Shown here: positions 9,541 through 43,276 of the stretch, in pieces
How the letters are laid out: each line of letters starts with the position of its first letter
Position numbering within the stretch: the first letter of the stretch is position 1
Origin: Escherichia coli
GTDB taxonomy: Bacteria > Pseudomonadota > Gammaproteobacteria > Enterobacterales > Enterobacteriaceae
Assembly (NCBI RefSeq): GCF_003334385.1
Contig: NZ_QOWN01000023.1
Reading direction: 5' to 3' (one strand)
DNA: 64,000 nucleotides
Notes under the pieces: model-generated
Seen by the model: the letters and a program-made list of their open reading frames with translations, nothing else
The model's database searches: none
What the model was told of the DNA's origin: nothing
Program-made: the position numbers and the translations under genes

Positions 9541-10680
9541 ATGGTTTTGCAATCCACGCGCTGGTTGGCGCTCGGCTATTTCACATACTTTTTTAGTTAC
9601 GGCATTTTTCTACCTTTCTGGAGCGTCTGGCTTAAAGGGATTGGTTTAACGCCAGAAACCATCGGCCTGTTATTGGGGGCAGGTCTGGTTGCCCGTTTCC
9701 TCGGGAGTTTGCTCATCGCGCCCCGCGTCAGCGATCCTTCCCGCCTGATTTCCGCCTTGCGCGTGCTGGCACTGCTGACACTTCTCTTTGCTGTCGCCTT
9801 CTGGGCGGGGGCGCACGTAGCGTGGCTGATGCTGGTGATGATTGGCTTTAACCTCTTTTTCTCACCACTGGTACCGTTGACCGATGCACTGGCGAATACG
9901 TGGCAAAAGCAGTTCCCGCTTGATTACGGCAAAGTGCGACTGTGGGGCTCGGTGGCGTTTGTCATTGGCTCGGCGCTGACGGGCAAACTGGTCACTATGT
10001 TTGATTATCGGGTGATCCTCGCGCTGTTGACGTTGGGCGTGGCATCCATGCTGCTCGGCTTTCTCATCCGTCCGACGATTCAGCCACAAGGGGCAAGTCG
10101 CCAGCAGGAGAGCACCGGTTGGTCTGCGTGGTTGGCGCTGGTTCGCCAGAACTGGCGCTTTCTGGCCTGCGTTTGTTTATTGCAGGGGGCACATGCGGCC
10201 TATTACGGTTTTAGCGCCATTTACTGGCAGGCAGCTGGCTACTCGGCCTCGGCGGTGGGGTATTTGTGGTCGCTGGGCGTGGTGGCGGAAGTCATTATCT
10301 TTGCGCTGAGTAATAAACTTTTCCGCCGTTGTAGTGCACGCGATATGCTGTTGATCTCGGCGATTTGCGGCGTAGTGCGCTGGGGCATTATGGGAGCAAC
10401 TACGGCGTTGCCGTGGTTGATAGTGGTGCAAATTCTGCATTGCGGCACCTTCACGGTCTGCCACCTGGCCGCCATGCGTTATATTGCTGCTCGCCAGGGT
10501 AGCGAAGTCATCCGTTTACAGGCGGTTTACTCTGCCGTCGCGATGGGCGGCAGTATCGCTATCATGACCGTTTTCGCCGGTTTCCTGTATCAATATCTGG
10601 GCCACGGCGTGTTCTGGGTAATGGCGCTGGTGGCGCTTCCGGCAATGTTTTTGCGCCCGAAAGTTGTTCCCTCATGCTGA
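9541..10680 (+). CDS. hcaT: MFS-family transporter (probable phenylpropionate permease)
   Basis: 379 aa, 12-TM-like hydrophobic profile; last 9 nt overlap the 3' end of convergent csiE. Confidence 0.88.
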   Translation: MVLQSTRWLALGYFTYFFSYGIFLPFWSVWLKGIGLTPETIGLLLGAGLVARFLGSLLIAPRVSDPSRLISALRVLALLTLLFAVAFWAGAHVAWLMLVMIGFNLFFSPLVPLTDALANTWQKQFPLDYGKVRLWGSVAFVIGSALTGKLVTMFDYRVILALLTLGVASMLLGFLIRPTIQPQGASRQQESTGWSAWLALVRQNWRFLACVCLLQGAHAAYYGFSAIYWQAAGYSASAVGYLWSLGVVAEVIIFALSNKLFRRCSARDMLLISAICGVVRWGIMGATTALPWLIVVQILHCGTFTVCHLAAMRYIAARQGSEVIRLQAVYSAVAMGGSIAIMTVFAGFLYQYLGHGVFWVMALVALPAMFLRPKVVPSC

Positions 10681-11952
10681 TTCGAGCATTTTGCGGATCT
10701 GCTCCTGTTGATGTGTTGTCAGCGTCAGGTCCGTATAGATCAGCGGTGGTGAAAAGAGCGGTAATGGCATGGTATAAGGCGCAATAATCAGTGCCGCGCC
10801 ACGCGGAGCGCCTGTCTGCAAAAATGCCTTTACCGACATATGCTTAATGTTGAGCGGCAGTAACGTTAGTTCGCGTAACTGCTGCTCAATCTGCGCTTCT
10901 CGCTCGCTATCATTCCCGGTAAGAAGAATAATCTGTTTTTCATGCAGATCGTTTTCCTGCATTAGCCAGGCACCGAAAATCACCGCGACCAGACCACTTT
11001 CCTCATCAGAAAGATGGACGCCGTATTCACTTTCAAATCCGGCCAGCGCCGCGCGGGTGGTGCGCACCAGGCGTGGGTACAGTCTGGCGAACTCTTCCGG
11101 CAGGGTATTATCAATACCGATGGCAAACAAACTGCGATTTAACGCCTGGGCGAGGTGGGTATAAAGCTGATCACATAACCCCTGTTCATCATAAAAACGA
11201 ACATTTCCCAGCTCACGAAAATGGTTTACCAGACGTTTGATAGACTGACGCAATTGTCTGTCCCGCTGATGCGCATCCCGCAATGGATCGGGAACCCGCA
11301 ACATGGAAAAAAGTAGTGCCATAAACAGTGGCTCATCAGGTGGTACAGGCTGGAGCGCCCGACGCTGCCAGTGGCGTCCAATTTCCTGCGCTACCTGAAA
11401 TTCAAGGCAGGATTCCGCCCAGCGACGTTGGAGCGGATTAAACTGAGGCGTAATTCCAGCGTGGTGCTGCAGCAAACAATATTGCAGATACAGACACAGG
11501 AAATGAATATCGCGCGATTCAAAGCGTTTTTGCAGCCGTCGGGAGCAGAGATTCACTAACGCTTGTAGATTGGTATCGTCGTAAAAGTTACGCGCAATTC
11601 CGCGCCGCTTCAGTTCACTCTTCAGGGCGGGGGTGAATTGGCTGGTAATAAATGACGGACACAGACGGAAACCACGTCGTAGCCAGTGAAATAAACACAA
11701 ACGTTGGTTAAGCACTGTACCTTCAACCCGGTAGCTACCGTCATAACCAGTCGTCAGTGTGAGTTGATGATAGCGCAGGATCTCCCGTCCTGTTTCGCTG
11801 ATATCAAGACTGGCAATATCATCATCCACACCATTAAGCTCGCTGAAGGTTGCCATGGTGGCGGTCAACCCCGGCTGAAAGAGCGTCAGCAAGATCTGGC
11901 AGCGGCGCTGGGGAGCCGAAAGGACAGATGGTGGAGCAAGCGTAGGCATCAT
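10672..11952 (-). CDS. csiE: Stationary-phase inducible protein CsiE
   Basis: 426 aa from second Met (MMPTLAPP); matches my recollection of CsiE; convergent with hcaT. Confidence 0.85.
   Translation of the reverse strand: MMPTLAPPSVLSAPQRRCQILLTLFQPGLTATMATFSELNGVDDDIASLDISETGREILRYHQLTLTTGYDGSYRVEGTVLNQRLCLFHWLRRGFRLCPSFITSQFTPALKSELKRRGIARNFYDDTNLQALVNLCSRRLQKRFESRDIHFLCLYLQYCLLQHHAGITPQFNPLQRRWAESCLEFQVAQEIGRHWQRRALQPVPPDEPLFMALLFSMLRVPDPLRDAHQRDRQLRQSIKRLVNHFRELGNVRFYDEQGLCDQLYTHLAQALNRSLFAIGIDNTLPEEFARLYPRLVRTTRAALAGFESEYGVHLSDEESGLVAVIFGAWLMQENDLHEKQIILLTGNDSEREAQIEQQLRELTLLPLNIKHMSVKAFLQTGAPRGAALIIAPYTMPLPLFSPPLIYTDLTLTTHQQEQIRKMLESA

Positions 11953-14803: not shown

Positions 14804-14804
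<1 letters not shown>
14064..14804 (+). CDS. trmJ: tRNA (cytidine/uridine-2'-O)-methyltransferase (SPOUT)
   Basis: 246 aa SpoU-type product; immediately upstream of isc region. Confidence 0.9.
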
Positions 14805-15180
<376 letters not shown>

Positions 15181-22544: not shown

Positions 22545-23321
22545 ATGTCCGAAACAAAAAACGAACTTGAAGACCTGCTGGAAAAAGCAGCAACTGAACC
22601 GGCGCACCGCCCGGCCTTTTTCCGTACTCTACTGGAATCCACCGTCTGGGTGCCTGGTACGGCGGCGCAGGGCGAGGCTGTGGTTGAAGATAGCGCGCTT
22701 GATTTACAGCACTGGGAAAAAGAAGACGGCACCAGCGTCATTCCTTTTTTCACCTCGTTAGAAGCACTTCAACAGGCGGTTGAAGACGAACAGGCATTTG
22801 TCGTAATGCCCGTTCGCACGCTGTTTGAGATGACACTTGGCGAAACGCTCTTCCTTAATGCCAAACTGCCAACCGGTAAAGAATTTATGCCGCGTGAAAT
22901 CAGTTTGTTGATTGGTGAAGAGGGAAATCCGCTGAGCAGCCAGGAAATCCTGGAAGGCGGTGAATCGCTGATATTATCGGAAGTCGCAGAGCCGCCAGCA
23001 CAAATGATTGATTCACTCACCACCTTATTTAAAACCATTAAGCCGGTGAAGCGTGCTTTTATTTGTTCAATTAAAGAGAACGAAGAGGCACAGCCTAATT
23101 TACTTATTGGCATTGAAGCCGATGGTGATATCGAAGAAATTATTCAGGCGACGGGAAGTGTAGCGACCGATACATTACCTGGCGATGAACCAATCGATAT
23201 TTGTCAGGTGAAAAAAGGGGAAAAAGGAATTAGCCACTTTATTACCGAACATATTGCGCCATTCTATGAACGTCGCTGGGGTGGTTTTTTGCGTGACTTT
23301 AAACAGAATCGGATAATCTAA
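22545..23321 (+). CDS. sseB: Enhanced serine sensitivity protein SseB
   Basis: 258 aa from MSETKNELEDLL; gene order pepB-sseB. Confidence 0.88.
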   Translation: MSETKNELEDLLEKAATEPAHRPAFFRTLLESTVWVPGTAAQGEAVVEDSALDLQHWEKEDGTSVIPFFTSLEALQQAVEDEQAFVVMPVRTLFEMTLGETLFLNAKLPTGKEFMPREISLLIGEEGNPLSSQEILEGGESLILSEVAEPPAQMIDSLTTLFKTIKPVKRAFICSIKENEEAQPNLLIGIEADGDIEEIIQATGSVATDTLPGDEPIDICQVKKGEKGISHFITEHIAPFYERRWGGFLRDFKQNRII

Positions 23322-23625
23322 AATATGCCGCCCAAAGGGCGGCATTCGGGCTTACTTGCTGCTCTGAAGGTTGTTAACCACCAGTAAATTGTCGCCGGAG
23401 AGACTCCGGTTATTATTTACCTCGGTTAACAGCGCACCAGAAACAATAAGTACGATACAAAAGCACCGTATCTTCATTGTGCGGTCCATGCGAAGACCGC
23501 ATCACGACAGCACCACTGGCGATATTGCCGCGATAGCAAGCGCTGTGAAACACCTGCATTTACGGCCACGGAACATCCTTTCCTAAAGCCAGCGCCCGTT
23601 TGCGAGACGGCGGAAAGGGCCGCAG
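23318..23625 (-). ncRNA. ryfA: Candidate ~300 nt RNA (RyfA-like), minus strand, carrying small ORFs
   Basis: Minus-strand -10 TATTAT (plus coordinates 23629-23634); GC hairpin 23325-23345 followed on the minus strand by AUUUUAG; span fits the ~300 nt RyfA RNA of the sseA-sseB spacer from memory. Confidence 0.4.
23352..23477 (-). CDS. Candidate small hydrophobic protein (41 aa; 45 aa if started at 23489)
   Basis: MKIRCFCIVLIVSGALLTEVNNNRSLSGDNLLVVNNLQSSK: basic N-terminus plus 15-residue hydrophobic stretch; ends 7 nt before terminator hairpin; no obvious SD; same frame as upstream 24-codon ORF (23502-23576) across a TGA. Confidence 0.3.
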   Translation of the reverse strand: MKIRCFCIVLIVSGALLTEVNNNRSLSGDNLLVVNNLQSSK

Positions 23626-23806
23626 TGGATAATACACTAACAGAACAATAATAACTCTCTTTTGCTTGACAAAAAGAGAGTTACTGGCGAGTATTGTCTC
23701 CGCTGAGACGCGCTTGCATTACTACGGTAATACAACCTGCTGGAAAGGCCGCGAACCGGACCAGCAACAAAAAACCGCCTGATTTTGGCGGTTTTTTGTT
23801 TTTTAA
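23609..23806 (+). repeat. Copy 1 of ~196 bp direct repeat: A/T-stem hairpin containing TTGACA (23666-23671) and a factor-independent terminator (23769-23804); candidate small RNA (RyfB-like)
   Basis: Near-identical core AACTCTCTTTTGCTTGACAAAAAGAGAGTTACTGG and CTGCTGGAAAGGCCGCGAACC shared with copy 2; GC stem plus T-run. Confidence 0.6.
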
Positions 23807-23930
23807 AGGAAAATGAATTTACATGTTTAAGTAATATCTTTTACCGGTTAGAATTTTTAATTTTGAGCAGGATTTGTTTATATTTGTCTGAATTCGGACT
23901 AATAAGCCAGGTTATTTTATTACCGAACAC

Positions 23931-24126
23931 GGCGGAAAGGGCCGGTGTCGATAATACGCTAAATAAACAATAATTACTCTCTTTTGCTTGACAAAAAGAG
24001 AGTTACTGGTGAGTATTGTTTTGCTGTGAAGCACCTGCGTTGCTCATGTAACACAAGTCAACCTGCTGGAAAGGCCGCGAACCAGACTAGCAATAAAAAA
24101 CCGCCAAATTCGGCGGTTTTTTATTG
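23931..24126 (+). repeat. Copy 2 of the same ~196 bp unit (TTGACA 23988-23993; terminator 24095-24123); candidate sibling small RNA (RyfC-like)
   Basis: Offset 322 bp from copy 1; diverged central segment, conserved ends and terminator. Confidence 0.6.
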
Positions 24127-41594: not shown

Positions 41595-41663
41595 TTATCC
41601 GTAAGTATTTTATCTGCCATTCCCTCTATGAATGTAGAGGGAATGGCTACCGGAGGAATTCAT

Positions 41664-43276
<1,613 letters not shown>

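Follow-up and report, generated by a model that had tools for sequence, protein, structure and literature searches.

Two pairs of convergent genes in a stretch of Escherichia coli DNA, hcaT/csiE and yfgJ/xseA, share the last nucleotides of their coding sequences. We consider that both overlaps are incidental, with a probability of about 0.75: convergent genes have been packed without a spacer, their stop codons have drifted and their transcripts are ended inside the partner gene. The overlaps are real, ordinary and already known, since they are part of the reference annotation, belong to a class that has been described statistically since the 2000s and are formed by gene pairs that have been listed as excludons.

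The window (the whole stretch of 64,000 nucleotides that was analysed) is E. coli K-12-like DNA, corresponding to the reverse complement of MG1655 at ~2.613-2.677 Mb. It matches MG1655 at 99.9-100% identity in reverse orientation, with the sole exception of one extra 91-nt repeat unit located far from both overlaps. The first pair comprises hcaT, encoding a putative 3-phenylpropionate MFS transporter (9541..10680, plus strand, stop TGA at 10678-10680), and csiE, encoding a stationary-phase-inducible protein (10672..11952, minus strand, stop TGA appearing as TCA at 10672-10674 on the plus strand). RefSeq places the start of csiE at 11952, and its reading frame stays open to 11973. The 9 nt shared by both genes, TCATGCTGA (10672..10680), provide TGA stops on both strands. 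The second pair comprises yfgJ, encoding a double zinc-ribbon protein and the last gene after der (41664..41879, plus strand, stop TAA at 41877-41879), and xseA, encoding the large subunit of exonuclease VII (41876..43246, minus strand, stop TAA appearing as TTA at 41876-41878 on the plus strand). Here the shared sequence is TTAA (41876..41879), with TAA stops on both strands. The MG1655 RefSeq annotation agrees for csiE (2665435-2666715) and hcaT (2666707-2667846) as well as for xseA (2634232-2635602) and yfgJ (2635599-2635814), the locus tags being listed as the pairs b2535/b2536 (csiE, hcaT) and b2509/b2510 (xseA, yfgJ). The overlaps of 9 and 4 nt reported in an earlier note on this DNA are therefore exact in coordinates and size, according to the open reading frame listing, the raw sequence and MG1655 RefSeq alike.

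Both pairs are short stop/stop overlaps between convergent coding sequences, that is, the genes lie on opposite strands, are supported by homologues and have both stop codons within the shared bases. Such overlaps are common. E. coli has about 704 convergent pairs, and 58 (Lillo & Krakauer 2007, PMC2174442) or 75 (PMC4161906) convergent overlapping pairs have been counted in K-12, resulting in an overlap rate of ~8-11%. Of the eight convergent protein-coding junctions in the window, six have spacers (37, 137, 38, 92, 30 and 47 nt) and two are the overlaps described here. By our own arithmetic, the binomial probability of at least two overlaps in eight junctions at the genome-wide rate is ~0.19; two overlaps in the window are not more than chance. 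[quoted passage not shown] Compared with the short tail-to-tail overlaps of this literature (Lillo & Krakauer 2007, Huvet & Stumpf 2014), yfgJ/xseA is an exact TTAA case from the tetramer set and hcaT/csiE is a longer, 9-nt form of the same kind, and neither pair differs from the class in any material way. The stop-codon-mutation model for these overlaps expects stop positions to drift between species, which is seen at both pairs.

At hcaT/csiE, this drift takes place against a background of conserved gene order. Of 5426 complete E. coli genomes, all but one (5425) contain a 701-nt segment that crosses the junction (window 10300-11000). Scanning for CsiE with one genome per species resulted in 36 loci from Escherichia, Citrobacter, Salmonella (arizonae, diarizonae), Kosakonia, Leclercia, Enterobacter, Pseudescherichia, Silvania, Cedecea, Buttiauxella and others, and hcaT is the convergent neighbour of csiE in 35 of them. 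The spacing between the two genes lies between -14 and 0 nt in 32 of these 35 loci, with values of -9 nt (most Escherichia loci, the C. amalonaticus/sedlakii group, Pseudenterobacter, Intestinirhabdus), -6 nt (Salmonella, several Citrobacter), -4 nt (Kosakonia, Leclercia, Silvania, P. vulneris and others), -14 nt (most Buttiauxella) and 0 nt (two loci). The remaining three loci have spacers of +38, +89 and +186 nt, one locus each. E. coli E69, for example, has gained an earlier TAA in csiE, which brings the spacing to 0. Because the genes abut in 32 of 35 loci while the length of the overlap varies, spacer-free abutment is old and the stop positions drift. Selection could be one reason why the genes have stayed without a spacer across so many lineages.

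The neighbourhood of yfgJ and xseA is far more variable. The K-12 arrangement is found in 3668 of the 5414 E. coli genomes with a match, and about 1690 E. coli genomes match the xseA part at only 80-90% identity; in about a third (31%) of E. coli genomes, as in many genera, yfgJ and xseA are not neighbours. The alternative order in E. coli is der, yfgJ (another allele), sinH, sinI, a giant adhesin and xseA. In this haplotype, the yfgJ allele has 65-68% amino-acid identity, an IS4 remnant takes its place in some genomes, and identity to K-12 xseA falls to only about 55-65% over the final ~150 nt of the gene. The idea that the K-12 3' end of xseA is a fusion with another gene was rejected: the two XseA tails are homologous as proteins. 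The sinH island between yfgJ and xseA corresponds, in E. coli, to the CS54 island of Salmonella, the boundaries of which were reportedly described by Kingsley and colleagues in 2003, and it is also present in E. albertii and Salmonella. In Enterobacter, Klebsiella aerogenes and C. sedlakii, an operon of emfourin and an M4 protease separates yfgJ from xseA, and the emfourin gene too overlaps yfgJ by TTAA. Other, metagenomic variants carry REP-like inserts of 37-43 nt between the two genes. Furthermore, the K-12 allele of YfgJ is an outlier within Escherichia, which suggests that the K-12 haplotype may have arisen by replacement of an island-bearing segment. Among the sequences compared, the nearest relatives of the K-12-type yfgJ allele (P0012, P0014) are 73% identical to it. 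Because the junction is the insertion point of a sinH/CS54-like island, the overlap belongs to one E. coli haplotype and not to the species, and it is clearly dispensable.

Where the transcripts end was taken from a published Term-seq and DirectRNA-seq study with and without bicyclomycin (Adams et al. 2021, PMC7815308), with the 3' ends placed on the window by coordinate conversion from MG1655. The 3' end of the csiE mRNA maps to position 10625 on the minus strand (MG1655 2666762, plus strand; supplementary file 1), inside hcaT and 47 nt beyond the csiE stop, and is classified there as 'primary csiE / antisense hcaT'. Judging from its place in the supplementary file, it is listed only in the tab for LB at OD600 2.0, which fits a stationary-phase gene. 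For yfgJ, a Rho termination region annotated as 'antisense xseA' maps to ~41968 on the plus strand (MG1655 2635510, minus strand; supplementary file 2), inside xseA and about 89 nt beyond the yfgJ stop, with a Rho score of 3.8 (p = 2.3e-6; positional resolution is low, because windows of 800 nt are compared). On the yfgJ strand, bicyclomycin thus raised read-through downstream of the stop. The cells behind the Rho dataset were at OD 0.5, a stage with hardly any csiE expression, so that we only infer Rho dependence for the termination of csiE. The curated Term-seq lists contain no 3' ends for hcaT or xseA (PMC7815308), and neither the gene names nor the coordinates of the two pairs were found in the SMRT-Cappable-seq supplements. 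In the supplements of the REP preprint, csiE is present only as rows of differential expression.

The earlier note had argued that, without room for terminators between the genes, the transcripts of each pair must be antisense to the 3' ends of their partners. As there is no intergenic DNA, full-length mRNAs are therefore complementary at their 3' ends, and the measured ends reach well past the minimal overlap. Antisense extension into the partner is borne out for csiE (+47 nt) and yfgJ (~+89 nt), two of the four transcripts, and transcripts ending before the overlap, the outcome that had been named as speaking against the claim, are not seen in the published 3'-end data. The premise of missing room holds for the intergenic DNA and overlooks signals embedded in coding sequence, namely a palindrome at yfgJ/xseA composed of A6, stem, loop, stem and T7, and a stem-loop in hcaT with the csiE end 1 nt after it. 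That terminators at convergent overlaps must sit inside the partner gene was already pointed out in 2007, in a study that predicted a rho-independent terminator within the partner for about 20% (23 of 116) of the E. coli genes that overlap convergently (PMC2174442).

At hcaT/csiE, the embedded signals are slight. The stem-loop, located in the last codons of hcaT (10626..10643), is weak and is not followed by a U-tract at the csiE end. It forms part of a larger hairpin on the hcaT-sense strand (about 10597-10652) that is followed by TGTTTTTG 26 nt before the hcaT stop and takes 14th place among the window's 330 U-tract sites. The published data report no 3' end at this larger hairpin (PMC7815308), and translation would be expected to suppress it as a terminator. 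A consensus promoter and terminator scan found only weak hairpins of 5-7 bp at this junction, all in coding sequence, and no canonical intrinsic terminator at yfgJ/xseA; Rfam at gathering thresholds returned no family at either junction. A conserved embedded terminator or stabiliser for csiE was ruled out, since RNAalifold predicted 0 pairs in the 88 nt around the csiE stop of 18 species and 60-nt junction folds from 36 loci had a median z of -0.54 (z = 0.02 in E. coli). We conclude from these folds that hcaT/csiE has no dedicated embedded terminator. The most plausible reading of the csiE end at +47 is that a factor terminates the transcript and that the mapped end results from processing or pausing. 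Base composition is uninformative on rut sites: in the first 200 nt past the stop, the C/G ratios are 1.19 for yfgJ, 1.23 for xseA, 1.11 for csiE and 0.74 for hcaT, unremarkable values in a window with a median of 1.0 and a 75th percentile of 1.17.

Under our preferred explanation, convergent genes come to abut without a spacer and, as the species comparison suggests, the exact stop drifts by point mutation. With no terminator between the genes, each RNA polymerase would pass its own stop and enter the antisense strand of the partner, where the ribosome is gone and the untranslated RNA would be terminated. For the der-yfgJ transcript, the published data place Rho termination about 89 nt into xseA. 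The csiE end may come from a Rho-terminated or read-through transcript that was trimmed back to the weak stem-loop, and the hcaT and xseA transcripts probably end likewise inside their partners, with Rho as the probable factor for the transcripts other than that of yfgJ. The weak palindrome at yfgJ/xseA may add some intrinsic termination in both directions. When both genes of a pair are on, about 50-100 nt or more of 3' RNA would be complementary, which makes the pair a convergent excludon by the transcript-overlap definition.

The alternative that survives best concerns this palindrome, which could be a real, selected intrinsic terminator embedded in coding sequence and serving both genes with the assistance of colliding polymerases, as in the model of Ju and Wang; in that case the overlap would have come about as a side effect, a terminator having been fitted into the C-terminal codons of two genes. 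We regard this as a tentative possibility with the odds against it. The palindrome (41850..41903) lies inside both coding sequences and reads AAAAAA-CGCGT...GTGC-TGGCTTAAT-GCAC...ACGCG-A-TTTTTTT. More specifically, the A6 tract (41850-41855) and the T7 tract (41897-41903) flank an outer stem CGCGT/ACGCG (41856-41860 and 41891-41895) and an inner stem GTGC/GCAC (41868-41871 and 41881-41884), with the TTAA overlap in the loop. Bidirectional intrinsic terminators have such a layout; here it is made up of the KKRVEF codons of yfgJ and the KKSRKK codons of xseA. A second stem-loop of 9 bp, GGCTGGATG...TATCCAGCC, follows in the yfgJ sense on the plus strand (41907..41941), within the coding sequence of xseA.

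Folding lends this alternative some weight. Compared to dinucleotide shuffles, the K-12 palindrome reaches z = -2.6 on the plus strand and -2.3 on the minus strand, and on the xseA strand a hairpin of -10 kcal/mol ends exactly at the U6 tract, equalled by 1 of 300 shuffles. An identical 4-nt overlap is found at two Citrobacter-type junctions (L051, L170), where the palindrome is much stronger and is built on another inner stem, GCCGGTTTAAACCGGC; the stem reads GCCGGT-TTAA-ACCGGC followed by TTTTT, with z = -5.4 and -5.1. In all three types of junction with an xseA spacing of -4, a hairpin ends at the U-tract (0-1 of 300 shuffles match it), and pairing is kept although the inner stems differ. 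Embedded rho-independent terminators at convergent overlaps also have precedent (PMC2174442). Against this, the K-12 palindrome itself is weak (about -10 kcal/mol per strand, with an interrupted stem and a long loop). In a crude scan of the window's 330 U-tract sites, it comes 71st and 115th, that is, in mid-field. The curated Term-seq lists contain no 3' end at the junction in any of three conditions, hence no defined Rho-independent ends on both strands of the palindrome, and the Rho region lies downstream instead (PMC7815308). Junctions with spacers of +4 or +6 nt (Atlantibacter and others) and most yfgJ/emfourin junctions are without such a hairpin. Furthermore, the A- and T-tracts are forced by the Lys-rich tails (KKR, KKSRKK), which are present even where the genes are not adjacent, and the covariation comes from only three independent sequences. 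We also considered whether the antisense of the conserved KKR codons of yfgJ (CGCG-U6) acts as a portable half-terminator for any gene converging on yfgJ; this was rejected as a general rule, because the hairpin at the U-tract is found only in the xseA -4 types.

Comparison with known bidirectional terminators (Ju et al. 2019, SEnd-seq; ynaJ-uspE, Wang et al., bioRxiv 10.1101/2022.10.23.513370) points in both directions. Like them, yfgJ/xseA combines a stem-loop with A- and T-tracts and would be expected to produce a short overlap of two 3' ends. Unlike them, its element lies wholly inside two coding sequences, is weak in K-12 and has no mapped reciprocal 3' ends, whereas hcaT/csiE has no comparable structure at all. 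The folds make an embedded terminator at the -4 junctions plausible. We hold it as a hypothesis, since it is seen in three sequences, the A- and T-runs are forced by Lys-rich tails and no 3' ends map there. The most specific form of this idea, in which TTAA is the loop of a bidirectional terminator written in the C-terminal codons of two proteins and selected in K-12-type E. coli and in Citrobacter, seems to us rather doubtful. If true, the need to terminate two converging transcripts would shape the last residues of both proteins and fix the 4-nt overlap, and the different inner stems of K-12-type E. coli and Citrobacter would lead to different C-terminal residues.

A regulatory role for the overlaps is a less likely alternative still. 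The earlier note had proposed transcriptional interference or RNase III-type processing. Worked out for these genes, polymerase collision, RNase III cleavage of the 3' duplex or both would act across the overlaps; hcaT would then be lowered when sigma-S and cAMP-CRP induce csiE in stationary phase, and the reverse, and transcription of der-yfgJ would damp xseA. Both pairs, as xseA-yfgJ and csiE-hcaT, are named in Table 1 of ExcludonFinder (NAR 2025, PMC12288877) among 165 convergent MG1655 excludons for which the RNA-seq coverage criterion holds in at least half of 58 transcriptomes. Together with the published extensions of csiE and yfgJ into their partners (PMC7815308), this listing places both pairs within the convergent excludons as far as transcript overlap is concerned. 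The order and abutment of csiE and hcaT are moreover conserved across Enterobacteriaceae, and excludon pairs in general have higher synteny (PMC12288877). In that study, however, the p19 dsRNA check was not applicable to convergent excludons, dsRNA validation having failed for them as a class, and no validation is specific to a pair; a look through the literature likewise found no expression data specific to csiE/hcaT or yfgJ/xseA. The length of the csiE/hcaT overlap ranges between 0 and 14 nt, with spacers of 38-186 nt in three species, while a selected device would have to do without the yfgJ/xseA adjacency in about 31% of E. coli genomes and in many genera; both observations argue against a selected regulatory device. 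There is also no known functional link between the partner genes. With an overlap that changes in length between species, a yfgJ/xseA adjacency that E. coli can do without and partners that are functionally unlinked, we expect any regulatory effect of the overlaps to be small.

With the convergent excludons (the Listeria paradigm; the MG1655 excludome, PMC12288877), both pairs have the overlap of 3' transcripts in common. Classic excludons, in contrast, have a long UTR over much of the neighbouring gene, compared to mapped extensions of about 47 and 89 nt here, and are defined by mutually exclusive expression (interference, RNase III), whereas our pairs qualify by transcript overlap alone. The mscL-arfA genes of E. 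coli are also a tail-to-tail pair with complementary 3' regions, and the title of PMC10070815 reports that arfA antisense RNA regulates MscL; csiE/hcaT and yfgJ/xseA are likened to it by arrangement alone.

Finally, that a stop or a gene was mis-called in each pair, leaving no true coding overlap, can be dismissed: although YfgJ is small (71 aa) and the start of csiE is ambiguous (11952 or 11973), the overlaps are made by stop codons and not by starts, YfgJ matches Pfam PF07191 and has a protein database entry ('Chain A, Hypothetical protein yfgJ'), and homologue alignments refute the idea, with all four proteins having full-length homologues in many genera that end at or near the same residues.

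Both overlaps thus have little importance for biology at large, and what they mean is mainly practical. Deleting one gene at such a junction can damage its partner, as with the published Keio primer for csiE, which also truncates hcaT (PMC9431181), and expression work on csiE, hcaT, yfgJ and xseA should be strand-specific. Beyond this, the yfgJ/xseA junction offers a compact test case for a terminator encoded within two overlapping coding tails.

The junction of yfgJ (plus strand, 41664-41879) and xseA (minus strand, 41876-43246), whose convergent coding sequences share a 4-nt TTAA, is the point at which a sinH-sinI-adhesin (CS54-like) island is inserted or substituted in other strains (41600-42020 in the window), and among complete E. 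coli genomes ~31% carry the island at this position. The island and the yfgJ alleles were compared across loci from other genomes (L004, L005, L042-L048, L053 and L059). The YfgJ proteins of island-type strains are just 65-68% identical to that of K-12, and the final ~150 nt of their xseA genes are ~55-65% identical to the K-12 sequence. Because it is the K-12 YfgJ allele that is the outlier within Escherichia, these comparisons suggest that the K-12-type yfgJ region arose by recombinational replacement.

Between yfgJ and xseA, Enterobacter, Klebsiella aerogenes and Citrobacter sedlakii carry an operon encoding emfourin (PF20242) and an M4 peptidase (L049, L050, L052 and L057, together with many metagenome loci including L083, L099 and L124). 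There the emfourin gene shares a 4-nt TTAA with yfgJ, exactly as xseA does in the window, and this type of overlap therefore recurs with an unrelated partner gene.

In two further loci (L055:1501-1815 and L056:1501-1815) the A6 run of yfgJ (41850-41855 in the window) has lost 1 nt, leaving AAAAA in place of AAAAAA. The shifted frame yields an ORF of 104 aa whose overlap with xseA is 104 nt long, and the deletion is either a true homopolymer frameshift or an assembly error.

At the other, 5' end of xseA, published Term-seq data place sense-strand 3' ends 21 and 58 nt inside the coding sequence, in M63 and in LB at OD 2.0 (Adams et al., 2021, PMC7815308). These map to 43226 and 43189 (MG1655 2634252 and 2634289, respectively) and may reflect premature termination or processing.

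Elsewhere in the window, the iscR-trmJ intergenic region holds a BIME/REP array (14804-15170; 91-nt period, 4.0 copies) with three Rfam naRNA4 matches. MG1655 has one copy fewer, which is the sole length difference across the aligned window. Rfam also matches the ryfA and IS128 RNAs on the minus strand (23320-23623 and 23755-23963). In MG1655 the 3' end of ryfA overlaps the convergent sseB coding sequence by 2 nt; ryfA/sseB is thus a further tail-to-tail overlap in the window, with an sRNA as one partner.

The 9-nt overlap of hcaT and csiE (10672-10680) is touched by the Keio csiE design: the deletion primer, as published, maps downstream of its target and the hcaT 3' end is also removed, and the library holds both correct and incorrect csiE mutants (PMC9431181). 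On the plus strand, an hcaT-sense hairpin of ~-16.5 kcal/mol followed by TGTTTTTG (~10597-10652) lies 26 nt before the hcaT stop and ranks 14th among the 330 U-tract sites of the window. No Term-seq 3' end is reported at this hairpin; were it to terminate transcription, non-stop hcaT mRNAs would result.
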